From positions 37,792 through 101,791 of the forward strand of contig DASWIP010000080.1 in NCBI GenBank assembly GCA_036397635.1: DNA of 64,000 nt, written 5' to 3'. The notes under the pieces were generated by a model. The model was not told where the DNA came from. It worked only from the letters and a program-made list of their open reading frames with translations, and ran no database searches. Position 1 is the stretch's first letter. The number at the start of each line of letters is the position of its first letter. The stretch comes from Actinomycetota bacterium. GTDB taxonomy: Bacteria > Actinomycetota > AC-67. This document shows, piece after piece, positions 19,749 to 63,808 of the stretch. Made by a program: the position numbers and the translations under genes.

Positions 19749-19820
19749 CCCACCACCTCCTCGTTCGAGCCCATCCCTTGCCTTCGATTGTCGCATGATG
19801 TCCGCCTCCTCTCGGGGAAC

Positions 19821-33533: not shown

Positions 33534-34679
33534 ATGCGAGACCGCGCCGCGATCGTCGGGATCGGGCAGACCGAGTTCGCCAAGGACATCGGCCGGCCCG
33601 AGCAGCGCATCGCCTTGGAAGCGATCAGCGCGGCGCTTGACGACTCGGGCGTCGGCGCGCACGAGGTCGACGGGCTGGTGAAGTTCTCGCTCGAGAACAC
33701 CATGGAGGTCGACATCGCGCGCAACCTGGGGATGCAGAACCTTCGGTTCTTCGCCGACGTCGCCTACGGCGGCGGCGCCGGGTGCGGCGCGGTCGGTCAC
33801 GCCGCCATGGCGGTCGCCTCGGGACAGGCCGAGGTCGTGGTGGTATGGCGCGCGCGCAACCGCGGTTCGGGTGGCCGGCCGTGGGCGAAGAAGGGCAACC
33901 GGGCCGGCGGCGAGATGCAGTGGTTCCTGCCGTTCGGCCTGTCGCGCCCGGTCGATCAGATCGCGATGCTCGCGCGCCGTCACATGATCGAGTACGGATC
34001 CACGTCCGAGCAGCTCGGCGCCGTCGCCGTCGCGTTCCGCGAGCACGCGCAGCAGAACCCCGCCGCGCTGATGCACGGCCGGCCGATGACGCTGGAGGAC
34101 TACCTTGCGTCGCGCTGGATCTCCGAGCCGCTGCGGCTTTTCGACTGCTGCCTCGAGACCGACGGCGCGCTCGCCGTCGTCGTCACCTCGGCCGAGCGCG
34201 CGCGCGATCTCCGCCGCCCCGCTGCGCTGGTACGCGGCTACGCGCAGGGCACCGGCTCCGAGCACCTGGTGATGGCCAACTATTTCACGCGTGATCCGCT
34301 GGACTCCCCCGGGCATCACGCCGCGCGCGACCTGTGGCGCAACGCCGGCATCGGCCCCGATGAGATCGACTCCGCGCAGATGTACGACGCGTTCACGCCG
34401 CTGATCCTGATCTCGCTCGAGGCGTTCGGCTTCGCCAAACCCGGCGAGGGAGGGCCTTTCGCGGCCGAGGGCAATCTGCGGCTCGGCGGCGCGCTGCCGA
34501 CGAACACGTCGGGAGGCGGCCTGTCCGAGGCCTACGTGCATGGCATGAACCTGATCCTGGAGGGCGCGCGTCAGATCCGCGGCGATTCCGTCAACCAGGT
34601 GGCGGGCTGCGAGACCGTGATGGTGTCCAGCGGTAACGGCGTCCCGACCAGCGCCTTGGTGCTGAGGAAGGACACATGA
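33534..34679 (+). CDS. Thiolase-like protein (SCP2/Ltp-type, non-specific lipid-transfer thiolase)
   Basis: 'AAIVGIGQTEF', condensing-enzyme fold of 381 aa. Followed by a DUF35 partner. Confidence 0.8.
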   Translation: MRDRAAIVGIGQTEFAKDIGRPEQRIALEAISAALDDSGVGAHEVDGLVKFSLENTMEVDIARNLGMQNLRFFADVAYGGGAGCGAVGHAAMAVASGQAEVVVVWRARNRGSGGRPWAKKGNRAGGEMQWFLPFGLSRPVDQIAMLARRHMIEYGSTSEQLGAVAVAFREHAQQNPAALMHGRPMTLEDYLASRWISEPLRLFDCCLETDGALAVVVTSAERARDLRRPAALVRGYAQGTGSEHLVMANYFTRDPLDSPGHHAARDLWRNAGIGPDEIDSAQMYDAFTPLILISLEAFGFAKPGEGGPFAAEGNLRLGGALPTNTSGGGLSEAYVHGMNLILEGARQIRGDSVNQVAGCETVMVSSGNGVPTSALVLRKDT

Positions 34680-35116
34680 GCGAGCAGCCACGACCCAAGG
34701 ATGCCGGGCGTGCAACGGCGCCGCGTCCGATCCCGGATCCGGATGCCGCGAGCGCGCCGTTCTGGGAGGCGGCGGCGCGCCACGAGCTGCTCGTCCAGCG
34801 ATGTGCCGGATGCGGCGAGTTCCGGCATCCACCCCGGCCGATGTGCCCGCGATGCAGCTCCTTCGAGCATACGTGGGAGCGCGCGAGCGGCCGTGCGCGC
34901 GTGTGGTCTTGGGTGGTCGCGCACAACCCCGTGCTGCCGGCATTCGCGGACAGGGTCCCGTACAACGTGGTCGTAGTCGAACTGGACGAAGGCGTGCGGA
35001 TGATCGGGAACCTGCTCGACGTGCCCGTCGATCAGATCAGCGACGGCATGAAGGTGGTCGTGGACTTCGAGGACGTCGAGGATGGCGTCGCGCTCCCCGC
35101 GTGGAGGTGCGTGTGA
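34676..35116 (+). CDS. DUF35 Zn-ribbon/OB-fold protein (thiolase partner)
   Basis: 'CAGCGEFRHPPRPMCPRCSS' zinc ribbon plus OB fold. ATGA overlap with the upstream thiolase. Confidence 0.8.
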   Translation: MSEQPRPKDAGRATAPRPIPDPDAASAPFWEAAARHELLVQRCAGCGEFRHPPRPMCPRCSSFEHTWERASGRARVWSWVVAHNPVLPAFADRVPYNVVVVELDEGVRMIGNLLDVPVDQISDGMKVVVDFEDVEDGVALPAWRCV

Positions 35117-37215
35117 GCGTCGTGGAGGACCGTGCGGCGACCGATCTGACGTTGTTCTTCCGTCCACGCGTGATCGCCGTCGTCGGCGCGACCGACAACC
35201 AGCGCCACGGTAACTACTTCCTGTTCAAGAAGGTGCAGGCCCGCGCCGCCGTGGACGGCTCGAAGGTGTGGGCCATCAACCCGCGCGAAGGACTGACCGA
35301 GATCGAAGGGTCGCCCTGCGTGCCGACGATCGCCGAGGTCCCCGAGCCGATCGACCTCGCCGTCGTGATGGTCAACAAGGAACGCATCGTCCCGGTACTG
35401 ACCGAGGTGTGTGCGCGCCGGCCCGGCTTCGCGATCGTGTTCACGGCGGGCTTCCGCGAAACCGGCCGGGCCGAAGATGCGGCCCTGGAGGATCAGATCG
35501 CGCGCATCTGCGCCGACGCGAACGTCCGGCTGTTCGGCCCGAACACCAACGTCAACGCGCTCGAGACGTTCCCGGACCTGCCCGGGCCGAAGATGGCGCT
35601 GGTGACGCAGTCGGGTCACCAGGGCCGCGGCGTCGCGCAGGGTCACGCGCTCGGCATCGGCGTGAAGACCTGGGTGCCGACGGGCAACGAAGCCGACCTG
35701 GAGGCCGCCGACTTCTTCGATCATTTCGTCGATGACGACGAGGTCGCGATGATCGCCGCCTACATCGAGGGGTTCAAGGACGCCGCGACACTTCGGCGTG
35801 CGGCGTCCCGCGCGGCCGCGCGCGGCAAGCCCATCGTCCTGGTGAAGATCGGCCGGACCGAGGCCGGCGCGCGCATGGCCGCGTCGCACACCGGTCACCT
35901 CACCGGATCGGACGCCGTGCACGACGCGTTCTTCCGCCAGTTCGGCATGATCCGTGTCGACGACCTCGACGAGGTGCTGGACATGGCGGGGATGTTCACG
36001 CGCCTGCCGCGCGCGCCCGGCGACGGCATCTGCATCTACGCGATCTCGGGAGGGACCGGCACCCACATGGCCGATCTCGCCGCGGCCGGCGGCCTGCGCA
36101 TTCCGACGTTGAGCGAGGGCACGCAGTCGAATCTGCACGAGCTCGGCATCCCCGATTACCTAACGGTCGCGAACCCGGTGGACAACGGCGCGCAGCCGGT
36201 GCGCACGCCGGGGGTGAACCGCGCGCTGATCCAGGCGTGCATGGACGACCCGAGCACCGACATCCTGGTCTGCCCCATCACGGGCATCCTGCCGTCGATG
36301 TCCAGGATCGTCTGCGAGGACATCGTCGACGCGTACCGCACCGCCACAAAGCCCGTGATCGTGATCTGGGGCTCGCCGGTCACCGATGACGAGGGTTACC
36401 GTCTGCTGATCGAAGGCCGCGTCCCGATGTTCCGCTCGTTCACCGCGTGCGTGAAGGGGCTGCGGCGTTACATCGACTTCTGGCGCTTCCACGACTCGTT
36501 CGAGCAGCCGCCGATGACCGACGCCGCGGTCCCCGATGAGCTGGCCGGGCTGCTCGCCGGCGACGGACCACTCTCCGAGCACGACTCGGCGACCGTCGCA
36601 GGCCGCTACGGGGTGTCGTTCCCACCGACGGAGCTATGCGCGACGCCCGACGAGGCCGAACGCGCGGCCGGGAAGCTCGGCGGCGACATCGTGCTGAAGG
36701 CGTGCGCCCCCGAGCTGCTCCACAAGAGCGATCTGGGTCTGGTGAAGGTCGGTGTACCGGCCGGCGACGTGCGTGCCGCGTTCACGGACCTGCTCGCGCG
36801 CGCGCGCGCGGAATCGCATGTCGGCGTGCAGGGGGTCTTGGTGCAAGGGATGGCGCCCGACGGCGTCGAGTGCATCGTCGGCGTCAAACGCGACGAGCAG
36901 TTCGGCCCGGTCGTACTGTTCGGGCTCGGCGGCATCTTCGTCGAGGTGCTGAAGGACGTGTCGATGCGTATCGCGCCGCTCTCACGCCGGGATGCCGAGG
37001 AGATGATCCGCGAGGTCCGAGCCTTCCCCCTGCTCGCCGGCGCGCGCGGCCGCGCACGCGTGGATCTCGACGCGCTCGCCGGCCTGCTGGTGAACGTGTC
37101 GCGCCTGGCGATGGATCTGCGTGATCGCGTCGCCGAACTCGACCTCAATCCCGTGCGCGTGCTGCCGGACGGTCAGGGCGTCATCGCGCTCGACGCGCTC
37201 GTCGTGCGGGGATGA
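35113..37215 (+). CDS. Acyl-CoA synthetase (NDP-forming), fused alpha/beta (CoA-binding, CoA-ligase and ATP-grasp domains)
   Basis: 'VIAVVGATDN...' CoA-binding N-terminus, then succinyl-CoA-synthetase-like 'SQSGHQGRG', then a C-terminal ATP-grasp region. GTG start with SD 'GGAGG' overlaps the DUF35 stop. Confidence 0.75.
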   Translation: MSVVEDRAATDLTLFFRPRVIAVVGATDNQRHGNYFLFKKVQARAAVDGSKVWAINPREGLTEIEGSPCVPTIAEVPEPIDLAVVMVNKERIVPVLTEVCARRPGFAIVFTAGFRETGRAEDAALEDQIARICADANVRLFGPNTNVNALETFPDLPGPKMALVTQSGHQGRGVAQGHALGIGVKTWVPTGNEADLEAADFFDHFVDDDEVAMIAAYIEGFKDAATLRRAASRAAARGKPIVLVKIGRTEAGARMAASHTGHLTGSDAVHDAFFRQFGMIRVDDLDEVLDMAGMFTRLPRAPGDGICIYAISGGTGTHMADLAAAGGLRIPTLSEGTQSNLHELGIPDYLTVANPVDNGAQPVRTPGVNRALIQACMDDPSTDILVCPITGILPSMSRIVCEDIVDAYRTATKPVIVIWGSPVTDDEGYRLLIEGRVPMFRSFTACVKGLRRYIDFWRFHDSFEQPPMTDAAVPDELAGLLAGDGPLSEHDSATVAGRYGVSFPPTELCATPDEAERAAGKLGGDIVLKACAPELLHKSDLGLVKVGVPAGDVRAAFTDLLARARAESHVGVQGVLVQGMAPDGVECIVGVKRDEQFGPVVLFGLGGIFVEVLKDVSMRIAPLSRRDAEEMIREVRAFPLLAGARGRARVDLDALAGLLVNVSRLAMDLRDRVAELDLNPVRVLPDGQGVIALDALVVRG

Positions 37216-38195
37216 AGCTCGAGCAGCTGCGTACCCCGGCGCTGCTCGCGGACGCGGATGCGCTACAGCACAACATAGACACCATGGCGGCGGCGCTGCC
37301 CGGCGCGCGACTACGGCCGCACGTGAAGGCTCACAAGTGCACAGCGCTGGCCCGTCTGCAGGCCGACGCTGGGCACCGGACGTTCTGCGCGGCGACGGTG
37401 CGCGAGATCGAGGGGATGGCGGCCGCGGAACTGGGTGAGGACCTGCTGCTCGCCAACGAGACCCTTGACACGACGCGCCTCGGCGCGCTGGACGCCCGCG
37501 TGACCATCGCGGTCGATTCGCGGGAAACCATCGACGCGGCCGCGCGCGGCGGCGTGCGCGAGGTGTTGATCGACGTCAACGTGGGACTGCCGCGGTGCGG
37601 CATCGCACCGGACGAAGCCGGACGGCTGGCAGACGCCGCGCGCGCCGCCGGGCTGACCGTGCGCGGCGTGATGGGCTACGAAGGCCATGCCGTCGGCATC
37701 CCCGACCGCGCCGTGCGCGAGCAGCTCTGCGCCGACGCGATGCAGGCGCTGCAGCGCGCCCACGCCGACGTCGGCGGCGAACTGATCTCGGCGGGGGGCA
37801 CCGGCACCTACGACATCAACACCTGGGCGACCGAGATCCAAGCCGGTTCCTACGTGCTGATGGACACCGCGTACGCGCAGCTCGGCCTGCCGTTCCGGCA
37901 AGGCCTGTCGATCCTTTCGACCGTCATCAGCGTCTCCGCCGGCTGGGCGGTCGCGGACTGCGGGCTCAAGGCCCTGGGCATGGATCACGGCAACCCGTCG
38001 ATCGACGACGCCGAGGTCTGGTTCGTGTCCGACGAGCACGTCACGTTCGCGCCGTCGTGGCGCGCGCGCGTCGGCGAGCGCGTCTGCGTCCGGCCCGCAC
38101 ACATCGACCCGACCATCGCGACGCACGAGCGCATGCACCTGGTGCGCGGCGACGAGCTGCTCGACACCTGGGAGGTCGATCTGCGCGGATGGTGA
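37212..38195 (+). CDS. PLP-dependent alanine-racemase-fold enzyme (D-serine dehydratase / D-threonine aldolase-like)
   Basis: 'RLRPHVKAHKC' PLP-lysine context, 327 aa. Confidence 0.7.
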   Translation: MKLEQLRTPALLADADALQHNIDTMAAALPGARLRPHVKAHKCTALARLQADAGHRTFCAATVREIEGMAAAELGEDLLLANETLDTTRLGALDARVTIAVDSRETIDAAARGGVREVLIDVNVGLPRCGIAPDEAGRLADAARAAGLTVRGVMGYEGHAVGIPDRAVREQLCADAMQALQRAHADVGGELISAGGTGTYDINTWATEIQAGSYVLMDTAYAQLGLPFRQGLSILSTVISVSAGWAVADCGLKALGMDHGNPSIDDAEVWFVSDEHVTFAPSWRARVGERVCVRPAHIDPTIATHERMHLVRGDELLDTWEVDLRGW

Positions 38196-38680
38196 GTATC
38201 GATCCGCTGCTCGAGCAGCATTACCCAAGCGTGCGTGCGATCTTCGAAGAGGGGATCGCCGGCGGCGACGCCACGTTCGAAGCAGTCGCCCCGGATTGGC
38301 GGGGCTTCGACGATCGGTTCCTGCCGGCGTGTCGCCTGGTCGCGCGCGACGGCGGTGACGTCGTGGGGTGGGCGGCGCTCACGCCGTACTCGCGCCGCGA
38401 GGTGTATCGCGGTGTCGCCGAGGTCAGCGTCTACGTCGCGAGCAGCTCACGCGGCCGGGGCGTCGGGCGCGCGCTGCTCGAGGCGCTGATCGCATTTTCG
38501 GAGGCGGAAGGGTTCTGGACGCTGCAGGCCGGCATCTTCACCGAGAACGCGGCCAGTCTCGCGTTGCATCACGCGTGCGGGTTCCGCATCGTGGGCGAGC
38601 GTCAGCGCATCGGCCGCATGCCCGACGGGCGCTGGCGCGACGTCGTGCTGATGGAGCGCCGCAGCGCTGCGGTCGACTAG
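38189..38680 (+). CDS. GNAT-family N-acetyltransferase (phosphinothricin-acetyltransferase-like)
   Basis: 'RGRGVGRALLEALI' acetyl-CoA-binding motif. ATG overlaps the upstream stop (ATGGTGA). Confidence 0.8.
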   Translation: MVSIDPLLEQHYPSVRAIFEEGIAGGDATFEAVAPDWRGFDDRFLPACRLVARDGGDVVGWAALTPYSRREVYRGVAEVSVYVASSSRGRGVGRALLEALIAFSEAEGFWTLQAGIFTENAASLALHHACGFRIVGERQRIGRMPDGRWRDVVLMERRSAAVD

Positions 38681-39210
38681 TCGGACCGCACGGCGAAAGA
38701 GACACAGGTGTCTCTGACGTTCGGGAGCAACTCGATGATCGCGCGCCGCCCGTCTTGGCCTTCCCAGTCGGGCATCTCGTGGCCGAGCGAGATGCGGAAC
38801 GACCGGAACGCGATCGCGAGCATGTCGGCGACGTGCAGGCAGCCCTCGTCGCGCGGGATGCGCTGCTTGAGCTGCTCCTGGTTGCGTCGCCACACGCTCG
38901 CACCGATCAGGCCGGCCAGCGCCGACATCGCGCGCGGGCACGTGTCGAACGGATGCTTGAGCATGCGCCCCGCGGCCTCGGTCACCGTGCCCTCGGTGTC
39001 GACGCGCAGCGCGATGCGCATCGAGTGGAAATCGTCGTCCAGCTCGGTCACCGAGATCCAGCCGTCCTCGACCGCGTGCAGATGGGTCTGGAACGAGCGC
39101 TCGAAGCGTCGCTCGCCGGCGCGCGCGGCCGCGGTGAGCTGCTCGTAGGCATCAGCGATCGCGTCGGCGTCGGGCGACGGCGTGGTCCAACGAGGTTCGG
39201 GCATGTCCAC
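38677..39210 (-). CDS. Hypothetical protein (possibly DUF2889-like)
   Basis: 177 aa, coding-like. The family assignment is from memory and uncertain. Confidence 0.4.
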   Translation of the reverse strand: MDMPEPRWTTPSPDADAIADAYEQLTAAARAGERRFERSFQTHLHAVEDGWISVTELDDDFHSMRIALRVDTEGTVTEAAGRMLKHPFDTCPRAMSALAGLIGASVWRRNQEQLKQRIPRDEGCLHVADMLAIAFRSFRISLGHEMPDWEGQDGRRAIIELLPNVRDTCVSFAVRSD

Positions 39211-39244
39211 GGATGCTACTCGGCCCCTGCTAGCCTCGCGCGCG

Positions 39245-40303
39245 ATGAGACGGGTCGGGATCGTCGCGGTCGCACAGACCGATCATGCGCGCCACCGCGA
39301 CGATGCGACCGCCGCCGAGTTGCTCTATCCGGTGGTCAAAGAGGCCGTCGCCGCGAGCGGGCTCTCGCGCCACGAGATCGACTACACCTGCGCCGCGTCG
39401 TCCGACTTCCTGGAGGGACGGCCGTTCTCGTTCGGCTTCGCGTTGGACGCCGCGGGCGCCGTCCCGCCGATCGAGGAGTCACACATCGAGGGCGACGGCG
39501 CTTGGGCAGCCTACGACGCGTGGGTGCGCATCCAGGCGGGGCTCGCCGATTCTGCGTTGGTCGTGGCCTGGGGCAAGTCGAGCGAGGGATCCCTCCCCCA
39601 CGTGCTGAACGCGACGCTCGATCCGTTCTGGGAGTCGCCACTTGGGCTGGACGCGGTCGCGCTCGCTGCGCTGCAGGCGCAGGCGCTCGGGCTGCCCGAC
39701 GAGCAGCTTCACGCGATCGTCGCGCGTAACCGCGCGGCCGCACGCGCGAACCCGCATGCGCAGATCACCGCCGAGCCCGACCCGGCCTCGCCGTTCATCG
39801 TCGAACCGTTCCGACGCGAGCACCTCCCGCCGATCTCGGACGGCGCGTGCGCGCTCGTGATGGCGGCCGAGGAAGTGCTCGCGCGGCTGGATGCGCCGGT
39901 CGCGTGGATCGGAGCCGCCGCGCATGCATCCGACGCGGCGAGCATCAGCGCGCGCGACCTCACCCTCGCGAGCAGCGCGCGCGCCGCCATCGCCGCCGCG
40001 GACCCGGATCGGGATTGGCGCATGCTGGACGTCGCCGAGGTGATGGCGCCGTTCCCGCACCAGGAGCCGATGCTGCTCGAGGCGTTCAGCATCAACGTCG
40101 GCGCAGTGAACCCCTCGGGTGGCGCGCTCGCCGCGAACCCGATCATGGCGACCGGCCTGGTGCGCCTTGCCGAGGCCGCGCTGCAAGTGACGGGAACGGC
40201 GGGCCTGCGGCAGGTTCCGGGCGCGCGACGCGGGCTCGCGCACGCGACCGCCGGGCACTGCCTGCAATCCAACATCGTGTTCCTGCTGGAGGGAACACCG
40301 TGA
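39245..40303 (+). CDS. Thiolase-like protein (SCP2 type)
   Basis: 'VGIVAVAQTDH' start, condensing-enzyme fold. Confidence 0.7.
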   Translation: MRRVGIVAVAQTDHARHRDDATAAELLYPVVKEAVAASGLSRHEIDYTCAASSDFLEGRPFSFGFALDAAGAVPPIEESHIEGDGAWAAYDAWVRIQAGLADSALVVAWGKSSEGSLPHVLNATLDPFWESPLGLDAVALAALQAQALGLPDEQLHAIVARNRAAARANPHAQITAEPDPASPFIVEPFRREHLPPISDGACALVMAAEEVLARLDAPVAWIGAAAHASDAASISARDLTLASSARAAIAAADPDRDWRMLDVAEVMAPFPHQEPMLLEAFSINVGAVNPSGGALAANPIMATGLVRLAEAALQVTGTAGLRQVPGARRGLAHATAGHCLQSNIVFLLEGTP

Positions 40304-41436
40304 GGCCGGTCGCCGTCCTGGGCGTCGGCCAGACCGACCACGCCAGCGCGCGCACCGACGTGTCGCTGCCGGGCCTGATCCGCGATGCGATCGACCGCGC
40401 GCTGCTCGACGCTGCGTTGGAGCATGACGACATCGACGCGGTGATCCTGGGGACGGCGCCTGACTTCTTCGAGGGCGTGATGCTGCCCGAGTGGTGGCTG
40501 GCCGGCGCGCTCGGCGGCATCGGCAAGCCGGTCCTACGCGTCCACACGATGGGCTCAGTCGGCGGTGCGACCGCGATCACAGCCGCGGCGCACGTCGGCA
40601 GCGGTCTGTTCGAGCGCGTGCTTGCGGTCGGATTCGAGAAACATTCGGAGTCGCAGGCGTTGTGGGGCCTCACGCCGCGCAACCCGTTCGGCCGCACGTT
40701 CGGCGCCGGCGCCGGCGCCGCGTTCGCGCCGATCTGCCGCGCGTATATGCAGCGCCACAGCGCGCCGGCCGAGATCGGGCCGCGCGTCGCGGTGAAGGCG
40801 CGCGCGAACGCGCTGCGGAACCCCCACGCGCATCTGCGCTTGGACCTGACGCTCGACGAGGTGCTCGCGTCGCCGATGCTGTGGGACCCCATCCGGCGCC
40901 TCGAATCCTGTCCGCAATCCGACGGCGCCGTCGCGATGATCTTCGGCGCGGAAACGCATGCGCGCGCCGGCGCCGCATGGGTGCGCGGCGTCTCGACCAT
41001 GGCGGAGGCGCTGTCGTATCCGGGCCGGGACGTGCTGCGCGCGCCGTCGGGCGTCGAGTGCGCGCGGCGCGCGTACGCGCAAGCAGGTATCACGCCGGCC
41101 GACCTGGACGTCGCCGAGATCTACGAGCCCTTCAGCTGGATCGAAGTGCTGCTGTACGAGCTGCTCGGGTTCTGCGAGCCTGGTGAAGGCTGGCGGATGT
41201 TCGACCACGGTGACACCGACCTCGGAGGCCGCCTGCCGGTGAACCCGAGCGGTGGCGTGCTCTCGACCAACCCGATCGGCGCGAGCGGCATGCTCCGCAT
41301 GGCGGAAGCAGCGCTGCAGGTGATGGCCCGCGCCGGCGAGCGGCAGGTGGACGGCGCGCGCACCGCGCTCGGTCACGCCTACGGGGGCACGCTGAGCTAC
41401 CACGCGTGCATGGTGCTGTCGAAGGAGAAACCGTGA
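40300..41436 (+). CDS. Thiolase-like protein (SCP2 type), paralog
   Basis: 'VAVLGVGQTDH'. GTG overlaps the upstream stop. Confidence 0.75.
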   Translation: MRPVAVLGVGQTDHASARTDVSLPGLIRDAIDRALLDAALEHDDIDAVILGTAPDFFEGVMLPEWWLAGALGGIGKPVLRVHTMGSVGGATAITAAAHVGSGLFERVLAVGFEKHSESQALWGLTPRNPFGRTFGAGAGAAFAPICRAYMQRHSAPAEIGPRVAVKARANALRNPHAHLRLDLTLDEVLASPMLWDPIRRLESCPQSDGAVAMIFGAETHARAGAAWVRGVSTMAEALSYPGRDVLRAPSGVECARRAYAQAGITPADLDVAEIYEPFSWIEVLLYELLGFCEPGEGWRMFDHGDTDLGGRLPVNPSGGVLSTNPIGASGMLRMAEAALQVMARAGERQVDGARTALGHAYGGTLSYHACMVLSKEKP

Positions 41437-42362
41437 CCTTCGTCCGCAGGCCGCTCGACATCGAATACCCGTACACGCACTCGACCGGGCCGGTCGTCGG
41501 GCGCGCGCTCGCGGCGCTGCGCGACGGCGTGCTGCTGGGCGCGCGCTGCTTGCAGTGTGGCGCGGTCGGTGTGCCTGCGCGCGACTGGTGCGAGCGCTGC
41601 GGCGGCGCTGTTGCCGACCTGGTGCCGGTCGGCCCCGGCGGCGTGGTGCGCCACGTCGCGCGCGTTCACCGACCGACCGCGCTCGCGCCCACCGTCGAAG
41701 CATGGGCGTTGATCCGGCTCGACGGCGCCGACACGGACCTTCTCTACGCGGTCCGCGGCGACGTGCAGCCGGGGGGGCGCGTGCGTCCAGTCTGGCGTGA
41801 GCAGCGCGCCGGCTCGATCACCGACATCGAAGCCTTCGAGCCAGGCGAGCCCGAGGACGTTTCAGCTGAAACGTCCTCGGCACCGATCGAGATCTTCCAC
41901 CGTCACGTCTCGCTGCCGTTCACCCTGTCCGCGGGCACGCAGCTCAGCCGCTACTACACCGACATCCGCGAGGGCCGCGGCCTGCACGGGGTACGCTGCT
42001 CGCGATGTGACATGGTGCTGGTGCCGCCACGCGAGGCCTGCCCGCGTTGCTGGGCCGACACCGAAGACTGGATCCCGATCCCCGACCGTGGCATCGTCAC
42101 CAGCTTCGTCGTGGTCAACGTGCCGTTCCACGGCCAGCAGATCGAGATCCCGTACGTGCTCGCGTGGGTGCGCCTCGACGGCGCCGACACATCGTTCCTG
42201 CACCTGCTTAGCGAGATCGATCCGTCCGACGCGCGCATGGGCATGCGCGTCGAAGCCGTCTGGCGCGAGCAGCGCTCCGGCTTCCCCAACGACGATATCG
42301 ACCACTTCCGCCCCACCGGCGAGCCCGACGCGCCGCTGTCGGACTTCATCGAAGGGCTCTAG
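41433..42362 (+). CDS. Tandem double DUF35 (Zn-ribbon/OB-fold) protein
   Basis: Two ribbons ('CLQCGAVGVPARDWCERCGG' and 'CSRCDMVLVPPREACPRCW'), each followed by an OB-fold segment. GTG with SD 'GAAGGAG' overlaps the upstream stop. Confidence 0.75.
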   Translation: MTFVRRPLDIEYPYTHSTGPVVGRALAALRDGVLLGARCLQCGAVGVPARDWCERCGGAVADLVPVGPGGVVRHVARVHRPTALAPTVEAWALIRLDGADTDLLYAVRGDVQPGGRVRPVWREQRAGSITDIEAFEPGEPEDVSAETSSAPIEIFHRHVSLPFTLSAGTQLSRYYTDIREGRGLHGVRCSRCDMVLVPPREACPRCWADTEDWIPIPDRGIVTSFVVVNVPFHGQQIEIPYVLAWVRLDGADTSFLHLLSEIDPSDARMGMRVEAVWREQRSGFPNDDIDHFRPTGEPDAPLSDFIEGL

Positions 42363-42526: not shown

Positions 42527-43348
42527 CTAGCCTGGCAGTTCAGCAATCCACAGAATCGACGAGCCATGAAACGGGCTGGTGGCGATCTCGACCTCATAGC
42601 TCCAGTCGCCCTTAGCGTCGGTTGCGACAGCTGCCCACGGGAACGGTCCAAGGGAGGGATGAATCCGGGGGTCCAGTCCCCACGAGCTATCGCCGTCTCC
42701 ATCTGGCCCCTTGATGGACAGGCTGCCGGCCTTAGAGTGTAGAAGCGCGAATAGGTATCCACCATTCTGACGAACTTCCCTTAGACCGACGGCTGCCGAG
42801 GCTCCCAGGAGTCCGGCACCGGTACCAATGTTGAAGTCGGCTACTGAGTACTGGTAAGCCACGCCTCCTGAGCGACTCGGTTCTGGATCCCCCTCCACCA
42901 GAACGTGGCATTGAATCGTTCCTCCCCAGGAAGCCCAAATGACCCTGAGGCGCGTATTCTCTTCGGATGTTGTCTCACTCATGACCACTGGACGTACGGA
43001 TCCCTCCGTTAACACGACCTGCTGCTTTGCCCCGGTGAGAGTGAGATCAGCCCGCACGCTGAGGTCAGGTTGAATTCCTAGCCATGAGGCGCTGAGGCCT
43101 CCCGCTTCAGCCTCCATGGAATACGCCTGAAAAATCCGGTGCGGCGAGGACTCAGAGTCTCCAGGGACCGTGCACTGCAGCTCCCAATTGGTATCCGCCT
43201 CCGGCAAGAAAGCATCGACGTAACCCACCGGAACTGACAACTGCTCGCGCGTCTCTGGAGCTAAGGGGGCCTTGGCCTGAACAATATGCGGGATTAGCCC
43301 GGCACACAGCGCCAACGCGACCACGGTGATTGCGCCCGGTCGAATCAC
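42527..43348 (-). CDS. Secreted hypothetical protein with atypical codon usage (likely horizontally acquired)
   Basis: Signal peptide 'MIRPGAITVVALALCAGLIPHIVQA'. Frequent TTA/CTA/ATT/AAT/TCT codons and lower local GC than the flanks. Confidence 0.6.
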   Translation of the reverse strand: MIRPGAITVVALALCAGLIPHIVQAKAPLAPETREQLSVPVGYVDAFLPEADTNWELQCTVPGDSESSPHRIFQAYSMEAEAGGLSASWLGIQPDLSVRADLTLTGAKQQVVLTEGSVRPVVMSETTSEENTRLRVIWASWGGTIQCHVLVEGDPEPSRSGGVAYQYSVADFNIGTGAGLLGASAAVGLREVRQNGGYLFALLHSKAGSLSIKGPDGDGDSSWGLDPRIHPSLGPFPWAAVATDAKGDWSYEVEIATSPFHGSSILWIAELPG

Positions 43349-43494
43349 TTGGCCGGCCCCTCATCCAAGTACATGATCACCTTCGCCTTGAGAAGATGCG
43401 AACCAAGTACACAGTCCAATGGAACGGAACGGCCGGCGCATCCCTGGATCCCCCATGACCGGCATGCTTCCCTGCGGATCGGGCAGCTTCCTGC

Positions 43495-44655
43495 TCATCC
43501 GCGGGGCAGGCCGAGCGCGCGCTCAGCCAGGATGTTCTTCTGGATCTCAGTGGTGCCCGCGCCGATCGTTGTCATGCGGCTCCACACCTCGTCGTGCGCC
43601 CACGAGCCGTCGTCGATCGCGTCCGCGTCACCCTTCCAGCGCAGCCCGTCCGGCCCGAACGCGTGCATCGCCGCTTCGGCGAGGTCTTGGGACACCAGGC
43701 TCCAGTGCAGCTTGCCGATCGGAACCTCGGGCCACGGGTCGTCGCCGCGCGCAGCCTTGGTCACAGCGCGCAGCGCCGTCAGCCGGATGATCTGCACGCG
43801 CACGTACAGATCCGCCAGCTCCTGCTGCAGCGCGGCGGCGCGCACCGGATCGGACGGCCACGATTCTTCGTGTGCGAGCAGCTGCTCGAGCCGCTGCCGG
43901 AGGTTGATGCCGTAGGTGACGGTTCCGACGCGCTCGTGCGTGAGCGTCGCCATCGCGACGCGCCACCCGTCGCCCTCGTCGCCGAGCCGGTCGACGACCG
44001 GCGCGCGCACCTCGGTGAAGAACACCTCGTTGAACTCGGTCCCGCCGGTGATCTCGCGCAGCGGCCGCACCTCGACGCCGGGCGCGCGCATGTCCACCAC
44101 GATCATCGACATGCCGCGGTGTCGCTGCTCGGACGGATCGGAGCGGCACAGCAGCAAGCATCGATCCGAACGGTTCGCGCGAGAGATCCACACCTTCTGC
44201 CCGGTGATCACGTACGCGTCGCCGTCGCGTTCGGCACGAGTCGCGAGCGCCGCGAGGTCGCTGCCGGCGCTCGGCTCGCTGAAGCCTTGGCACCAGATCT
44301 CGTCGGCGGCGAGCATCGGCGGCAGCCAGCGTTGGAGCTGCTCGTCGGTGCCGTACTCGAGGATCGCCGGGCCGATGTTCCACACGCCGATCGAGTTGAT
44401 CACCGTGGGCGCGCGCGCCTCGGCCAGTTCTTCTTGGTAGATGACTCGTTGCGCGACCGAGGCTTCGCGGCCGCCCCACGCGCGCGGCCAGCCGGGCGCG
44501 ACCCAACCGGCGTCGGCGAGACGCCGTTGCCACGCGCGCCTGAACTCGAATGCGTCGTCGGCATCGCCGGGGAGCGGGCCGGGATGGTTCGCGGCGAGCC
44601 ACGCGCGTAGCTCCGCACGGAACGCGGCATCCTCGGGAGTGTCGTCGAAATCCAT
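43495..44655 (-). CDS. Acyl-CoA dehydrogenase
   Basis: ACAD N/M/C domain pattern and C-terminal 'GAGTTEIQKNILAER'. Confidence 0.8.
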   Translation of the reverse strand: MDFDDTPEDAAFRAELRAWLAANHPGPLPGDADDAFEFRRAWQRRLADAGWVAPGWPRAWGGREASVAQRVIYQEELAEARAPTVINSIGVWNIGPAILEYGTDEQLQRWLPPMLAADEIWCQGFSEPSAGSDLAALATRAERDGDAYVITGQKVWISRANRSDRCLLLCRSDPSEQRHRGMSMIVVDMRAPGVEVRPLREITGGTEFNEVFFTEVRAPVVDRLGDEGDGWRVAMATLTHERVGTVTYGINLRQRLEQLLAHEESWPSDPVRAAALQQELADLYVRVQIIRLTALRAVTKAARGDDPWPEVPIGKLHWSLVSQDLAEAAMHAFGPDGLRWKGDADAIDDGSWAHDEVWSRMTTIGAGTTEIQKNILAERALGLPRG

Positions 44656-44797
44656 TTCAGAACGTTATCCGGTCGAGCAGCTTGCCCGCCTCGCCGATCT
44701 GCTCGCAGTAGACGAACATGCCGCGCACCTTCTCGATGCTCACGCGCGCGCATCATCGCATCCGATGTCCGCCGCCGAGTAACCGGGGCATCAGGCG

Positions 44798-44858
44798 CAC
44801 ATCCCCCCGAACTTGTCCGGATCCTGCAGGGTGTACTGACACCATCCCGGACGAGAAC
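44798..44858. repeat. About 61-bp direct repeat, copy A (carries a truncated 5' fragment of the DUF559 gene)
   Basis: About 87% identical to 45766..45826. The minus-strand reading 'MVSVHPAGSGQVRGD...' parallels the DUF559 N-terminus 'MVPVQPAELGQARGD...'. Confidence 0.7.
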
Positions 44859-44873
44859 CGGTGGGCGGAGCGG

Positions 44874-45812
44874 TCACGGTGCGTCGTGGAGGGCCGCCCA
44901 GATCGCGGCGACTAACCTCTCCGGGCGCGCGAGGTCCCTCCAGGTGACATGGATGACCCGCCAGCCGAGCAGCGTCAGCGCGTTGCGCCGTGCCAGGTCG
45001 TGCTCCCAGGGCATGCGGCCGGAGTGCCACCGGTAGCTGTCCGCCTCGATCGCCAGCCGGGCATCGGGGAACGCGAAGTCCACCACGGCTACGGTCCGCC
45101 CACCGCTCCTGATCCGGTACTGGGGAAGCGGTTCGGGCAGACGGGCGCGCCGCAGGACCCGCAGCAGCCGCGACTCCAGGACGCTCTCCGGAGGAGGATC
45201 CGAGGGAGCGCGCGCTTCGAGCAGGGCGCGCATCACTGCGATGCCGGGCCGTCCTCGCTGGTCTCCACGGACGTGCCAGCGCATGCGCGCGATGGAGACG
45301 AGGCGGCGGCGGAGCGCGTCGTCCAGCGCCTCCTCGACCGCATCTCTCGACGCCACCGCCGCGATGTCGATCAGCGTGCGCGCCGGAACGGTCACGGGGA
45401 TCGCCTCCACGATCGTCACGTCTCCGGCCGGAAGAGCGTTCCGATGCACGATCCCGGGTGCGATGCGGTCCCGGCGCCGGGGCACCGTCAGCTCGATCGG
45501 CCCCGGCTCGAAGCCTGCGAGACGAGGCAAGGCGGCAGCCGCGCGATGCGACGCGACGGCGCCGTCACCCCACGCGAGGCAAGCCGCAAGCAGAGACTGG
45601 CGCCATGACGGCGGGACCCCGGCGAGCCGGAACACCCCGCTCGCGCATCGCTCCCACCGGCCCACCTCGAGCCGGTGGTCGATGAAGCCACGCGTAGCGC
45701 CGAGTTCCCTCAGCTGTGCCCGCGTGAAGACCCCGTGCTGGCGTTCCGCAAGGCGCGCCACGCCCGCATCCCCCCGAGCTTGTCCGAGTTCTGCAGGTTG
45801 TACTGGCACCAT
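44874..45812 (-). CDS. DUF559 / AbiEi-N-like domain protein (Vsr-fold endonuclease-like family, multi-copy in actinobacteria)
   Basis: N-terminal 'FTRAQLRELGATRGFIDHRLEVGRWERCASGVFRLAG', C-terminal DUF559-like 'VDFAFPDARLAIEADSYRWH'. Confidence 0.7.
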   Translation of the reverse strand: MVPVQPAELGQARGDAGVARLAERQHGVFTRAQLRELGATRGFIDHRLEVGRWERCASGVFRLAGVPPSWRQSLLAACLAWGDGAVASHRAAAALPRLAGFEPGPIELTVPRRRDRIAPGIVHRNALPAGDVTIVEAIPVTVPARTLIDIAAVASRDAVEEALDDALRRRLVSIARMRWHVRGDQRGRPGIAVMRALLEARAPSDPPPESVLESRLLRVLRRARLPEPLPQYRIRSGGRTVAVVDFAFPDARLAIEADSYRWHSGRMPWEHDLARRNALTLLGWRVIHVTWRDLARPERLVAAIWAALHDAP

Positions 45813-45939: not shown

Positions 45940-47136
45940 TTAGGCCGATGCGACCACGCGCGCGGGACGGAAGCGGACGGGGAGGCGGTTGGGCGAGCGG
46001 AACGCGTCCCCTTGGATGTACGTCTCGCCGCCGTCCGCGTCCAGCCGCAGGTCCTCCAGCCGATCGAGCAGCGCGTTCATCGCCGTGGTCACCTCCGCGC
46101 GCGCGAGGTGCTCGCCCAGGCAGCGATGCGGCCCTTCGGCGAACGCGAGGTGCGGCGCGCGCACCGCGAACAGGTCGTAGCGGTCCGGATCCTCGAACAC
46201 CGCCTCATCCCTGTTGGCCGAGCCGAGCACCAATCCGATGTGCGCGCCGGCGGGGATCACGGCCGCACCCACCTCGACGTCGCGGGTCGTCATCCGCTCG
46301 ATGAACTGCACCGGGGTCTCCCAGCGCAGCGCCTCCTCGATCGCGGCGGGTAGAAGGTCACGCTGATCCCGTACGGCGTCGAGCTGCCGCGGGTCGTGCA
46401 GCAGCGCGAACAGCAGGGAGCCGAGCAACCGGTAGGTGGTCTCGGCGCCGGCCGGCAGCAGCAGCCGCAGGAACCCAAAGATCTCCTCGTCGGGCAAGGG
46501 CCGCCCGTCGATCTCGGCCCCGGCAAGCTCGCCGATGAGATCCTCGCGTGGGTCGCGACGACGCTGCTCGACGATCGGCGCGAGGTAGGAGCGCATCTCC
46601 TCGGCGGCCTGCAATCCGATCGAGGTCTCCGAGAGCCCGAGCATCGCGATCGACAGCCGAACGAACCGTGGATACTCCTCTCGCGGGATCCCGAGCAACT
46701 CGGCGATGATCTGGATGGGATAGCGGATCGTCACCTCCGAGACCAGCTCGGCGCGCCCGTGTCCGGCGATGCGGTCGATCAGGTCGTGGATCGTCGGCTC
46801 GATCAGGGTGGGCAGCACCCGCTCGATCGCGCGCCGGCGGAAGGTGCCGCCGATCAGCGCGCGATGCTGCTGATGCTCGGCGCCGTCCATCTGCAGGATC
46901 GACGGGCCGAACGCCAGACCGACCGAGTCCTCGTAGCCGCGCGACGAGAATGTCTGCGGGTCACGCAGCATCCGCTCCACGTCGGCGTAGCGGAAGATGG
47001 TGAACCACGCTCCCGCCGGATCCTGCTGCATCACCGGATCCTCCCGGCGCGCCCAGGCGTAATCCGGGTAGGGATCGCGCGCGTCGCCGACCGCGAGCTT
47101 GATCAGCGCGTCGAGGTCGTCGGGCCAGTCGCTCAC
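45940..47136 (-). CDS. Cytochrome P450
   Basis: Heme-ligand loop 'FAEGPHRCLGEHLA' and 'ETLR'-equivalent 'EEALRWETP'. Confidence 0.85.
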   Translation of the reverse strand: MSDWPDDLDALIKLAVGDARDPYPDYAWARREDPVMQQDPAGAWFTIFRYADVERMLRDPQTFSSRGYEDSVGLAFGPSILQMDGAEHQQHRALIGGTFRRRAIERVLPTLIEPTIHDLIDRIAGHGRAELVSEVTIRYPIQIIAELLGIPREEYPRFVRLSIAMLGLSETSIGLQAAEEMRSYLAPIVEQRRRDPREDLIGELAGAEIDGRPLPDEEIFGFLRLLLPAGAETTYRLLGSLLFALLHDPRQLDAVRDQRDLLPAAIEEALRWETPVQFIERMTTRDVEVGAAVIPAGAHIGLVLGSANRDEAVFEDPDRYDLFAVRAPHLAFAEGPHRCLGEHLARAEVTTAMNALLDRLEDLRLDADGGETYIQGDAFRSPNRLPVRFRPARVVASA

Positions 47137-48359
47137 GACGGCGAGAACCTGATCGGGACGCAGTTGGGCGAACGGAACGCGTAGCCGAGCACATGAGGGT
47201 CGCGTCCATCAGCGTCCAGCCGCAGATCCGGCAGCCGGTCGAGCAGCACGTCCAGCGAAACCGCCGCTTCGAGCCTGGCCAGATGCTCACCCAGGCAGCG
47301 GTGCACCCCGTCGCCGAACGCGACGTGGGGCGGCGGACCAGTCCGAGACAGATCGTAGGCGTCGGGGGCGTCGTAGCGAGCCTCGTCCCGGTTCGAGGCG
47401 CCCAGGTTCACGAACACCGGGGTTCCCTCCGCGATCGCGACCCCGGCCAGTTCGGTGTCCCGAGTCGCCTCGCGCATCGCGAACTGCACCGGCGCCTCCC
47501 AACGCAGCGACTCCTCGACCGCTTTCGCGATCAGGCTCCGGTCGGCGCGCACGGCCTCCAGCCGCGACGGCTGCTCGAGCAGCGCGAGCGTCATCGAGCC
47601 GAGCAGCCGATACGTGGTCGCCGCGCCCGCCGGGATCAGCAGTCGCAGGAACCCGTGGATCAGATCCTCGGGAAGCTTCTGCCCGTCGAGCTCAGCGGTG
47701 ACCAGATCGCTGATCACGTCATCGCCGGGCGCGGCGCGGCGCTGCTCGATCACGGTCGCGAAGTAGGCTTCGGCTTCCTTGGCGGCCGCGACGGCGCGAT
47801 CCCAGTCCACCGCGGCGCTCTCGAGCGATACCGCCCAGCGCTGCCAGCGCTCGAGATCGATCGCCGGCACGCCCAGGATCTGCGCGAAGACGCGCACCGG
47901 CACCTGCCAGGTGAACTCGCGCACCAGCTCGGCGTCGCCGCGCGCGGCGAACCGGTCGATGGCCTCGTGGGCGACCGGACGGATCAGGGTCTCCTCCCAC
48001 TGCTTGACCACGGTCGGCCGGAAGGCGTGCCCGATCAGCTTGCGGTGCACGAAATGCTCGCGGCCGTCCATCTCCAGGATCGTTCGCCCGAGCAGCGGTC
48101 GCATCCACGCGCCGTTGATCCGCGCCGAGAAGGTCTCCTCGTCGCGCAGGACGATCGATGCGACGTCGTAGGAGAAGACCATCGTGACCGGCACGCCCAG
48201 ATGCTTCGCCGGCGCGACCGGGGACGCGCGCCGAGCCTCGTGGTAGCGCGGGTACGGGTCGCGATCGTCGCCGATGTTGGCGGCGAGCAGATCGACCTCG
48301 CCGGTCGCCGACGCCCCCGGCTGGTCGGTCGCCCCGGGCACTGGCTGGTCGGTCGCCAC
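47133..48359 (-). CDS. Cytochrome P450 (tandem paralog)
   Basis: 'FGDGVHRCLGEHLA', 'EESLRWEAP'. ATGA overlap with the downstream P450. Confidence 0.85.
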   Translation of the reverse strand: MATDQPVPGATDQPGASATGEVDLLAANIGDDRDPYPRYHEARRASPVAPAKHLGVPVTMVFSYDVASIVLRDEETFSARINGAWMRPLLGRTILEMDGREHFVHRKLIGHAFRPTVVKQWEETLIRPVAHEAIDRFAARGDAELVREFTWQVPVRVFAQILGVPAIDLERWQRWAVSLESAAVDWDRAVAAAKEAEAYFATVIEQRRAAPGDDVISDLVTAELDGQKLPEDLIHGFLRLLIPAGAATTYRLLGSMTLALLEQPSRLEAVRADRSLIAKAVEESLRWEAPVQFAMREATRDTELAGVAIAEGTPVFVNLGASNRDEARYDAPDAYDLSRTGPPPHVAFGDGVHRCLGEHLARLEAAVSLDVLLDRLPDLRLDADGRDPHVLGYAFRSPNCVPIRFSPS

Positions 48360-58323: not shown

Positions 58324-58770
58324 TCAGGCCTCCTCGGCGGGGCGGAACTTCGGCAGCCGCAGCGGCTGGTGGAACGCGTCCTCGAGCTGCTCGTCGAACC
58401 AGACCTTGACCGGCATCCCGATCCGAACGCTTTCGGCCGGGCAGTCGGTCACGTTGCTGGTGATGATCGGCCCCTCGTCGAGCTCGACGTCGGCCACGAC
58501 GTAGGGAACCTCGTCGGCGAACGAGGGATGGAATGCGTGTCGCACGACCGTGAAGCTGAACACAGTGCCGTGCCCCGACGCCGGCTGCCAGGACAGATCC
58601 TGGGACAGACAGCTCGAGCAGCACGGCCCACCCGGCAGCTGCCGGTTGCCGCATGCCCCGCACACCTGGATGCGCAGCTGCTCGACCAGCGTGCCTTCCC
58701 AGAAGCCGCGCGTCTCGTCGATCACCACGGGCGAGGTGCCCATCACCAGCTCGGTCAGCGTGTGGGCCAT
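58324..58770 (-). CDS. DUF35 Zn-ribbon/OB-fold protein
   Basis: 'CGACGNRQLPGGPCCSSC'. Abuts the ACAD start. Confidence 0.75.
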   Translation of the reverse strand: MAHTLTELVMGTSPVVIDETRGFWEGTLVEQLRIQVCGACGNRQLPGGPCCSSCLSQDLSWQPASGHGTVFSFTVVRHAFHPSFADEVPYVVADVELDEGPIITSNVTDCPAESVRIGMPVKVWFDEQLEDAFHQPLRLPKFRPAEEA

Positions 58771-58773
58771 CGG

Positions 58774-63790: not shown

Positions 63791-63808
63791 GTCAGCCGCC
63801 TTTCGTCT

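Follow-up and report, generated by a model that had tools for sequence, protein, structure and literature searches.

A 64-kb stretch of DNA from an uncultured soil actinobacterium (contig DASWIP010000080.1; the whole stretch is referred to here as the window) carries three loci in which genes for thiolase-fold proteins adjoin genes for DUF35 proteins. Sequence comparisons suggest, with moderate confidence on our part, that these loci are the cores of three separable units, each of which would supply a retro-aldol "bypass" in a beta-oxidation-like pathway for beta-branched acyl-CoAs. Unit A would comprise a thiolase-like protein (T1), a stand-alone DUF35 protein (D1) and an ADP-forming acyl-CoA synthetase, and in relatives it is linked to one or more P450s, a thioesterase, a crotonase and an acyl-CoA dehydrogenase (ACAD2). 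Unit B would comprise two thiolase-fold paralogs (T2a and T2b), a tandem DUF35 protein (DD) and ACAD1, while Unit C would comprise a third pair (T3 and D3) together with ACAD4 and ACAD3. The original prediction for this DNA had described all of these genes as one island for the degradation of steroid- or terpenoid-type side chains. The window is identical to ENA contig k141_2386154 and also matches an NCBI TPA metagenome-assembled genome (proteins HEX9712867.1 and HEX9712874.1). Genes were called by third-position GC (the window is about 69% GC) and annotated with Pfam, and the three loci lie where they had been reported (33534-35116, 39245-42362 and 58324-59931), the second with two thiolase-like paralogs and a double DUF35. 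Two tandem P450s, crotonase-type enoyl-CoA hydratases and a true thiolase are likewise present. Five ACADs had been counted, but Pfam and tblastn found only four, beginning at 43495, 51060, 55935 and 57181.

In the pathway envisaged, an acid, which the P450s may produce from a methyl group, would be activated to its CoA thioester, an ACAD would desaturate the thioester, and a crotonase would hydrate the product. At a fully substituted beta-carbon, hydration would give a tertiary alcohol that could not be oxidised to a ketone for thiolysis, and the aldolase/DUF35 complex would split the bond between C-alpha and C-beta by a retro-aldol reaction to yield a ketone or aldehyde plus acetyl- or propionyl-CoA. 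Such a step would follow the same logic as that of Ltp2 at steroid C17 and the step proposed for Ltp3/Ltp4 at C24. The substrates would be beta-branched or alicyclic acyl-CoAs of an isoprenoid-, hopanoid- or sterol-like nature. Neither a MaoC hydratase nor a 3-hydroxyacyl-CoA dehydrogenase was found by Pfam among the called genes of the window, and the lack of the dehydrogenase was counted in favour of the bypass.

In a neighbor-joining tree (200 bootstraps, capped distances), the four thiolase-fold proteins were placed with Ltp2, Ltp4 and Ltp3 and not with BbsB, archaeal or SCP2 thiolases, a placement with which matches to NCBIfam and the Protein Data Bank (PDB) agree and which upholds the Ltp-type affinity first proposed for them. 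T1 groups with Ltp2 of T. curvata (TcLtp2; 100% bootstrap), and T3 falls in a clade with T1, TcLtp2 and 4u4e (100%). T2b lies inside the Ltp3 family (100%), within a window-type subclade of its own (95%) that is apart from the sterol-type subclade (100%). T2a lies inside the Ltp4 family (100%) and outside the sterol-type subclade of that family (99%), and Ltp3 and Ltp4 are sister families (90%). BbsB, SCP2-thiolase and thiolase 7yvy fall outside all of the Ltp-type clades.

The active sites of characterised members of the superfamily provide a reference for these proteins. In TcLtp2 the base is Tyr294, which lies in a YDHF motif, and the acid is Tyr344, with His296 forming part of the oxyanion hole. 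The residues used by CtSal are Tyr302 and Cys304, found within YDCY; the corresponding motif is YDCF in TbSLP and HDCF in true SCP2 thiolases (PMC12329534). When the proteins of the window were aligned with MAFFT and by hand, the nucleophilic cysteine of thiolases was found to be replaced by glycine in T1, T2b and T3 and to be absent from T2a as well, and T2a and T2b also lack the acid/base cysteine and the histidine of the GHP motif. These losses bear on the possibility that the proteins are true thiolases of the BbsAB/SCP2 type which carry out thiolysis of 3-oxoacyl-CoAs, as in anaerobic alkyl- and benzylsuccinate pathways, an analogy drawn in the original prediction. Pairs of DUF35 and thiolase-fold subunits do include a real thiolase, the benzoylsuccinyl-CoA thiolase BbsAB (7PXP), and the window proteins give weak NCBIfam matches to BbsB (101-126 bits) and BbsA (52 bits). 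BbsB has its catalytic Cys and His residues, however, the matches to it reach at most 126 bits against a cut-off of 750 bits, and it lies outside all four clades in the tree. The missing catalytic cysteines exclude thiolysis of the BbsAB type, and that the complexes are true thiolases is extremely improbable.

T2b (40300-41436, plus strand, 378 aa; Pfam 3.5e-42) is the predicted catalytic subunit of the second locus. It is 53% identical to the Rhodococcus Ltp3 ortholog and scores 511 bits against NCBIfam PRK08313, just under the cut-off of 514. In HMMER alignments with SCP2-thiolase 6hsj and BbsB 7pxp_C, the nucleophilic Cys corresponds to Gly85 of T2b, the HDCF motif to Y275-E-P-F, with Pro277 in place of the motif's Cys, and the GHP His to Asn324; Ala328 aligns with the Cys of the CxG motif in the MAFFT alignment. 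T2b cannot be a thiolase since the thiolase Cys and His residues are all replaced, yet the aldolase Tyr is kept. This Tyr is invariant in 79 of 79 Ltp3-family sequences, where the motif reads YVPF in 74 and YEPF in five that are of the window type. T2a (39245-40303, plus strand, 352 aa), which has a weak Pfam match (1.8e-9), is 42% identical over its full length to the Rhodococcus Ltp4 ortholog and scores 337 bits against PRK07937, below the cut-off of 419. At the site of the catalytic Tyr of aldolases T2a has Met267, an xNP motif stands in place of GHP, and the segment linking the Met267 site to the Asn-Pro motif has about 18 fewer residues than its T2b counterpart. The equivalent site is His in 73 of 83 Ltp4-family sequences and Met, Ala, Gly or His in members of the window type. 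T2a also diverges faster than T2b, with identities of 49-70% compared to 70-80% for the same genome pairs. These features suggest that T2a is probably a degenerate, non-catalytic partner.

DD, the product of the third gene of the locus (41433-42362, plus strand, 309 aa; two zinc-ribbon matches in Pfam), is a genuine tandem DUF35, as had been proposed, by the evidence of PDB matches, self-alignment and an AlphaFold2 model. Its N-terminal half (residues 14-115) matches 3irb, a DUF35 protein from Sulfolobus, and its C-terminal half (178-280) matches the DUF35 domain of ChsH2 (6ok1_B). The halves align with each other end to end, including both CxxC...CxxC ribbons (C39/42/53/56 and C189/192/203/206), with a local score of 202 that lies 36 standard deviations (z) above shuffled sequences. 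The model (mean pLDDT 90.2) repeats a pattern of strand, helix, zinc ribbon and OB fold twice. All 21 significant Foldseek matches of the model were DUF35 chains, mostly from complexes in which DUF35 staples thiolase-fold dimers (6ok1, 9myr, 7pxp, 6esq, 5m3k and 9vbo); single-DUF35 chains, each matching about half of the model, were all that the search returned, and no solved structure among them spans both halves. The tandem architecture goes back to one internal duplication.

The double DUF35 had been regarded as an unusual fusion, which it is not. It is the normal third gene of an Ltp4/Ltp3 module, and every one of the 120 best homologs is a full-length protein with both domains (285-373 aa, at least 84% query coverage) from Rhodococcus, Nocardioides, Jatrophihabitans, Pseudonocardiales and many metagenome-assembled genomes (MAGs). 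A search of 185,579 GTDB species genomes, one genome per species, yielded relatives of DD in at least 593 genome stretches; no close relative of the source organism was among these genomes, the best match to DD being 48% identical. The family can be named from the locus of Rhodococcus sp. KBS0724, where the order is AMP-ligase, crotonase, a 319-aa gene, a luciferase-like oxidoreductase, DD, a 356-aa gene and a 393-aa thiolase-like gene, followed at the end of the locus by a P450 gene that is divergent from a further gene, for a thiolase. The published order in M. tuberculosis is fadD19 (Rv3515c), echA19, Rv3517, Rv3520c, Rv3521, ltp4 (Rv3522), ltp3 (Rv3523) and cyp125/fadA5 (PMC6429209). The two orders match, and DD is thus identified as a member of the Rv3521 family, with 44% identity to the Rhodococcus ortholog. 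Rv3521 is called a conserved hypothetical protein in a 2019 study (PMC6429209) and again, as a protein encoded near ltp4, in one from 2022 (PMC9782250), and a 2022 paper labels it a hypothetical, possibly DNA-binding, protein. Among the open-access papers of the library searched, none was found to describe a tandem DUF35 partner for Ltp3/Ltp4. The DD homolog adjoins both Ltp4 and Ltp3 in 75 of 75 sterol-type loci with enough downstream sequence, and also in the loci designated L004, L006, L086, L087 and P0018.

The second locus is closest to the Ltp4-Ltp3-Rv3521 module of M. tuberculosis and the ltp3/ltp4 genes of R. rhodochrous, which are required for sterol side chains with a C24 branch. The same three families are adjacent and co-oriented, and the Ltp3 member shares the Tyr-x-Pro-Phe, Asn-Pro and Ala pattern. 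The two modules differ in gene order, which is Ltp4-like, Ltp3-like, DD in the window and DD, Ltp4, Ltp3 in the sterol loci; among the loci compared, the window-type order is shared only by L006 (from a soil Actinomycetota MAG), three metagenome loci (L004, L086 and L087) and the P0018 locus. They differ further in that the window has YEPF rather than YVPF and a Met where sterol Ltp4 proteins have a conserved His. The zinc ribbons set the modules apart as well. All four ribbon cysteines are retained in both halves of window-type tandem DUF35s (alignment A1), a state seen in 31 of the 120 best matches, whereas the proteins of the sterol type, or Rv3521 type, have lost the ribbon of the N-terminal half and most or all of that of the C-terminal half, with none left in Rhodococcus.

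It is possible, and we propose it tentatively, that the window-type trio is a heterotrimeric retro-aldolase for non-steroid beta-branched acyl-CoAs in which one subunit is a pseudo-enzyme and another is a two-headed zinc-ribbon/OB protein derived by internal duplication, the whole being a zinc-intact sister of Rv3521-Ltp4-Ltp3. From the alpha-beta-beta-alpha complexes of Ltp2 and Sal, we infer a catalytic role for T2b, a structural one for T2a and one DD head per protomer. In the 1:1:1 assembly that this would give, T2b would supply Tyr275 with T2a as its degenerate structural partner, and DD, predicted to act as a two-headed staple for the pair, would replace the two separate DUF35 copies of the Ltp2-ChsH2(DUF35) and Sal-Shy(DUF35) homodimers. 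The genes are probably translationally coupled, since 4-bp overlaps (GTGA) occur at both the T2a/T2b and T2b/DD junctions, as they do at the T1/D1/synthetase/PLP-enzyme junctions of the first locus, whose genes are probably coupled in the same manner.

The closest analogy for the T2a/T2b core is found in the archaeal acetoacetyl-CoA thiolase/HMG-CoA synthase/DUF35 complex (6ESQ/6ET9) and in the PhlABC/MucABC acyltransferases, where DUF35 scaffolds two different thiolase-superfamily subunits. The window might alternatively encode biosynthetic complexes of either type that form C-C bonds by acyl transfer or condensation, with the P450s and thioesterase as tailoring enzymes. Structurally, DD resembles the DUF35 chains that belong to PhlABC, MucABC and the archaeal complex, and two thiolase-fold paralogs plus a DUF35 protein reproduce the PhlA/PhlC/PhlB layout. 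In those systems, however, there is one single-domain DUF35 per pair, catalytic cysteines are present and C-C bonds are built, while DD is duplicated within one chain and T2b lacks a Cys on which an acyl group could be carried. An HMG-CoA synthase or KAS-III partner is absent, matches to PhlC are low (60-66 bits), and the ACAD, crotonase and CoA-ligase neighbours are typical of catabolism, which together make a biosynthetic role very improbable.

T1 (33534-34679, plus strand, 381 aa; Thiolase_C_1, 2.7e-30) resembles the Ltp2 component of the Ltp2-ChsH2(DUF35) aldolase, which is known from T. curvata (6OK1) and from M. tuberculosis (Rv3540c, in its igr operon). It is 49% identical to TcLtp2 (PDB 6ok1_A, E 2.6e-112) and passes the cut-off for NCBIfam PRK07855, 'lipid-transfer protein', with 536.7 bits against 469. 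T1 has Gly80 at the position of the thiolase nucleophile, and both catalytic tyrosines of TcLtp2 are kept, the equivalent of Tyr294 in a Y284-D-A-F motif and that of Tyr344 as Tyr334. The motif is YDAF instead of YDHF in 116 of the 120 closest T1 homologs, so that the oxyanion-hole histidine (His296) of Ltp2 is replaced by Ala. D1 (34676-35116, plus strand, 146 aa; zf-ChsH2 2.9e-14, OB_ChsH2_C 6.2e-20) has a Cys4 zinc ribbon (C43, C46, C57 and C60) plus an OB fold, is predicted to be the partner of T1, and is kept beside T1 orthologs in four related loci (L169-L172). Whereas in Ltp2-ChsH2 the DUF35 partner is the C-terminal domain of a MaoC hydratase, D1 is the product of a stand-alone gene. 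The unit also differs from Ltp2-ChsH2 in that T1 is accompanied by a synthetase, a crotonase and P450s other than Cyp125, and in having no ChsH1/H2 or ChsE1/E2 arrangement.

The synthetase is a fused alpha/beta ADP-forming (NDP-forming) acyl-CoA synthetase of 700 aa (35113-37215, plus strand; CoA_binding_2, Succ_CoA_lig and ATP-grasp_5), which matches the archaeal acetate-, 3-hydroxypropionate- and 4-hydroxybutyrate-CoA ligases of NCBIfam, in every case far below the cut-off. Orthologs that are 72-76% identical follow T1-D1 in L169-L171, and these three loci keep two linked blocks. Their first block is a pyrroloquinoline quinone (PQQ)-propeller gene on the minus strand followed by T1-D1-synthetase. 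The second block contains an AMP-ligase of 413 aa, either one P450 or two, a thioesterase, a crotonase and ACAD2, with an aldehyde dehydrogenase in addition in L169. The corresponding genes of the window are P450a (45940-47136, minus strand) and P450b (47133-48359, minus strand), which both match p450 in Pfam and are 47% identical to each other; a double-hotdog acyl-CoA thioesterase (48428-49510, plus strand; 4HBT, 4HBT_3 and 4HBT_3C); a crotonase-type enoyl-CoA hydratase (49507-50340, minus strand; ECH_1, 5.5e-43); and ACAD2 (51060-52232, minus strand; Pfam). P450 orthologs (57-79% identical) accompany T1-D1-synthetase in L169-L171, the thioesterase is kept beside them, the crotonase orthologs of these loci are 70-78% identical, and ACAD2 has orthologs that are 83% identical in L169 and 79% in L004. 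The linkage of P450s to the T1 block indicates that they belong with the T1 unit and not with the T2 trio.

Between the first and second loci lie the synthetase and three further genes, all four of them absent from the original prediction. A fold-type III pyridoxal phosphate (PLP) enzyme resembling D-Ser dehydratase and D-Thr aldolase (37212-38195, plus strand, 327 aa; Ala_racemase_N and D-ser_dehydrat) overlaps the synthetase gene by 4 bp in the window and is absent from L169-L171. Its homologs, 66-74% identical, occur on at least 80 soil metagenome contigs; T1, D1 and the synthetase are never their neighbours among the matches listed, and the PLP enzyme is therefore placed outside any conserved unit. 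A GNAT acetyltransferase gene (38189-38680, plus strand; Acetyltransf_1, 1.2e-15) is missing at this position in relatives, and in L171 a GNAT gene sits elsewhere, between the thioesterase and crotonase genes, so that its membership of the T1 unit is doubtful. A single conserved operon running from T1 through D1, synthetase and PLP enzyme to GNAT was considered and rejected, the last two being bystanders. The DUF2889 gene (38677-39204, minus strand; 3.7e-13) has an ortholog, 53% identical, between the synthetase gene and the P450 operon in L171. In the window this gene and T2a are divergent, their start codons lying only about 40 bp apart (region 38677-39244), which means that the trio's promoter must overlap with the DUF2889 gene or the region where it starts.

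T3 (58774-59931, minus strand, 385 aa; Pfam and PDB profile matches) combines Y284-D-C286-F with Gly at the nucleophile position and Asn334 where Ltp2 has Tyr344. In sequence it has what characterises the Sal/SLP aldolases, that is, the Tyr and Cys of YDC[Y/F], no nucleophilic Cys and an adjacent DUF35 protein. The Tyr and Cys dyad is shared with Sal-Shy(DUF35), the bile-acid aldolase of C. testosteroni (9MYR), and the YDCF motif is identical to that of the trypanosomal TbSLP; the position of Ltp2 Tyr344 is occupied by a residue other than Tyr in both T3 (Asn) and Sal (Gln). T3 differs from Sal in scoring higher to 4u4e (250.6 bits) and TcLtp2 (244 bits) than to Sal itself (9myr_A, 182.6 bits), in having a stand-alone DUF35 followed by two ACADs, and in lacking a Shy-like hydratase. 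D3 (58324-58770, minus strand, 148 aa; OB_ChsH2_C 4.9e-26, zf-ChsH2 4.3e-6) has a Cys4 ribbon, is taken as the partner of T3 and is 40% identical to D1. Downstream of T3-D3 are ACAD4 (57181-58323) and ACAD3 (55935-57077), both on the minus strand and identified with Pfam, and the order T3-D3-ACAD4-ACAD3 is repeated in L004 with identities of 84%, 69%, 88% and 72%.

The sterol side-chain reading in the original prediction holds in part: the modules do belong to Ltp lineages, as the tree and the PRK07855 score of T1 indicate, but a sterol-specific context is missing. According to passages in three papers that cite Wilbrink 2012 (PMC10832528, PMC7807495, PMC10398937), ltp3 and ltp4 encode aldol-lyases needed only for sterol side chains branched at C24. 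In a genuine cholesterol or phytosterol side-chain island, T1 would act as Ltp2 on the last C3 unit, T2a/T2b/DD would deal with the C24 branch and the P450s would be C26 oxidases. The nearest characterised relatives of all three modules do function in sterol side-chain catabolism. With Rhodococcus proteins as markers, the best 80 of at least 593 genome loci were compared, and 79 of the 80 have the sterol-type arrangement, with the order DD-Ltp4-Ltp3 and with FadD19, EchA19, an F420-type Rv3520c-like oxidoreductase, Cyp125 and FadA5 as neighbours. Comparison with the markers and tblastn found no ortholog of FadD19, EchA19, Rv3517, Rv3520c-like or Cyp125 in the window, where the neighbours are ACAD, ECH and CoA-ligase genes, and the sterol-type neighbours FadD19, EchA19, Rv3520c-like, Cyp125 and FadA5 are also absent from L004, L006 and L086. 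The true degradative thiolase of the window (62624-63832, minus strand; Thiolase_N 8e-68, Thiolase_C 1.1e-39) keeps its catalytic Cys, His and Cys in RQCGS, GHP and GCSG motifs, and its 46% identity to the Rhodococcus FadA5 ortholog could be taken for the sterol reading but is low for a FadA5. Pfam annotation found no MaoC ChsH1/H2 and no ring-degradation genes in the 64 kb. The KstR operator TnnAACnnGTTnnA has 0 matches in the same 64 kb against an expected background of 0.02, a weak test as the motif may not be that of this lineage. T2b is 53-56% identical to sterol-type Ltp3 proteins, which are 74-82% identical among themselves, and the trio stands apart from the sterol type in its separate subclade, its PRK07937 and PRK08313 scores below the cut-offs, its reversed gene order and its intact zinc ribbons; the YDAF motif of the T1 clade likewise speaks against the sterol type.

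Members of a P450 family conventionally share more than 40% identity. The P450s of the window are 32% identical to the Rhodococcus Cyp125 ortholog, and their best PDB matches are generic, namely 6gmf, CYP109B1 and an ancestral reconstruction of CYP125 (217 bits, the second-best match of P450a and a point in favour of a sterol role), with Cyp142 structures at about 160-165 bits. The P450s had been suggested as relatives of Cyp125/Cyp142, with a position outside the known steroid and alkyl side-chain clades named beforehand as a sign against the sterol reading, and it is outside the CYP125 and CYP142 families that they fall. Nothing in the window points specifically to a sterol substrate, and a genuine sterol island appears improbable.

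Synteny argues against a single degradation island in favour of three separable units that are arranged differently among genomes. In the window, the place of the 413-aa AMP-ligase of relatives, for which tblastn found no counterpart in the window, is taken by T2a-T2b-DD, a 273-aa open reading frame (ORF) of low GC, ACAD1 and an AbiEi-like gene. The MAG SMAG_U2902 carries its T1 unit (L169, contig DASWJS010000007) and its T2 unit (L006, contig DASWJS010000014) on different contigs, and around T1 in L170 and L171 neither a T2 nor a T3 unit lies within 10 kb. These three observations are consistent with the possibility that the units are unrelated chance neighbours which act on different substrates and form no single pathway, a possibility that would be compatible with the aldolase mechanism. 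On the other hand, in L004 the T3-D3-ACAD4-ACAD3 genes lie about 4 kb downstream of the trio with ACAD2/Amidohydro_2 upstream, and in L086 the T2 trio is followed by a T1 ortholog (77% identical). That the units recur close together, in rearranged orders, suggests that they are functionally linked, and we consider chance neighbours unlikely, though a possibility to be weighed seriously. The clustering of the units here is, judging from these comparisons, in part the result of local rearrangement.

For ACAD1 (43495-44655, minus strand; all three Pfam ACAD domains), convergent orthologs that are 51-69% identical lie immediately downstream of the trio in each of L004, L006 and L086. Other window-type loci carry CoA ligases, AMP-ligases, crotonases, MaoC pairs, ACADs, and alcohol and aldehyde dehydrogenases. 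In L087 (15000-15883) and the P0018 locus, small hydratase genes of the MaoC type occur in pairs, alongside a 743-aa protein in which two ACADs are fused and alcohol and aldehyde dehydrogenases, which suggests that trios of the T2 type may be used in several different acyl-CoA pathways. All four ACADs of the window (43495-44655, 51060-52232, 55935-57077 and 57181-58323) have Gly or Ala at the position of MCAD Glu376 near the C-terminus, a feature that is not diagnostic for ChsE-like heteromers; if active, they must use a catalytic base located elsewhere in the protein.

Several points weigh against the proposed scheme of three retro-aldol units for beta-branched acyl-CoAs. In relatives the three units do not always lie side by side and so may not form one pathway. 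The assignment of Ltp3/Ltp4 as aldolases in the literature is genetic and by analogy, and the hydratases of the window are crotonases rather than enzymes of the MaoC type that partner the known steroid aldolases. With respect to the active sites, T1 has Ala at the position of the Ltp2 oxyanion-hole histidine, and T2b has no equivalents of Ltp2 Tyr344 and Sal Cys304 and hence no assigned general acid. As to the assembly of the trio, the linker between the two DD domains, at about residues 138-153, is roughly 16 residues long, its reach across a dimer and the stoichiometry are only assumed, and the pTM of the AlphaFold2 monomer is 0.56, leaving the relative orientation of the domains uncertain.

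The remaining genes of the region can be described briefly. From DD onwards the order is the 273-aa ORF, which has no Pfam match, ACAD1, the AbiEi-like gene, the P450 pair, thioesterase, crotonase and ACAD2, and beyond ACAD2 come Amidohydro_2, an S51 peptidase, ACAD3, ACAD4, D3/T3, an aldo-keto reductase and the true thiolase. Horizontal acquisition of the whole as an island was considered and rejected, as GC is about 0.69-0.72 over 26-42 kb and the flanks are syntenic, save for small inserts at 18.5-25.3 and 42.5-45.8 kb. The first of these (18483-25315) encodes a LivK-type binding protein, a permease, a 616-aa AMP-ligase and two ABC ATPases, and has a GC content of 0.65-0.66 versus about 0.70 around it. 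It splits an acyltransferase gene and a class II aldolase gene that are directly adjacent in L086, L169 and L171, and it looks like a lineage-specific insertion. In the second (42527-45761), the 273-aa ORF lies in the stretch of lowest GC in the window (0.64), and the AbiEi/DUF559-like gene flanks ACAD1. Further upstream, the region 3761-11387 encodes a FlK-type thioesterase, a Rieske ferredoxin, a second crotonase (6260-7207; Pfam) and two ORFs resembling di-iron oxygenases of the PaaA/PaaC family (7496-8803 and 10299-11387), and possibly represents an independent oxygenase set for acyl- or aryl-CoAs.

The feature is real and fairly ordinary, and it reveals no new kind of system. Ltp2 and Sal attract study both as targets for drugs against M. 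tuberculosis and as biocatalysts in making steroid synthons, and the related Ltp3/Ltp4 pair is backed by genetics only. The analysis gives a testable subunit model for the Ltp3/Ltp4 enzyme, in which only the Ltp3-type subunit keeps the invariant aldolase-type tyrosine, and it indicates that a sister lineage whose zinc ribbons are intact occurs outside sterol clusters. The presence of putative retro-aldol bypass modules three times in one region of the genome of an uncultured soil actinobacterium suggests that this chemistry may be used on branched substrates beyond sterols.

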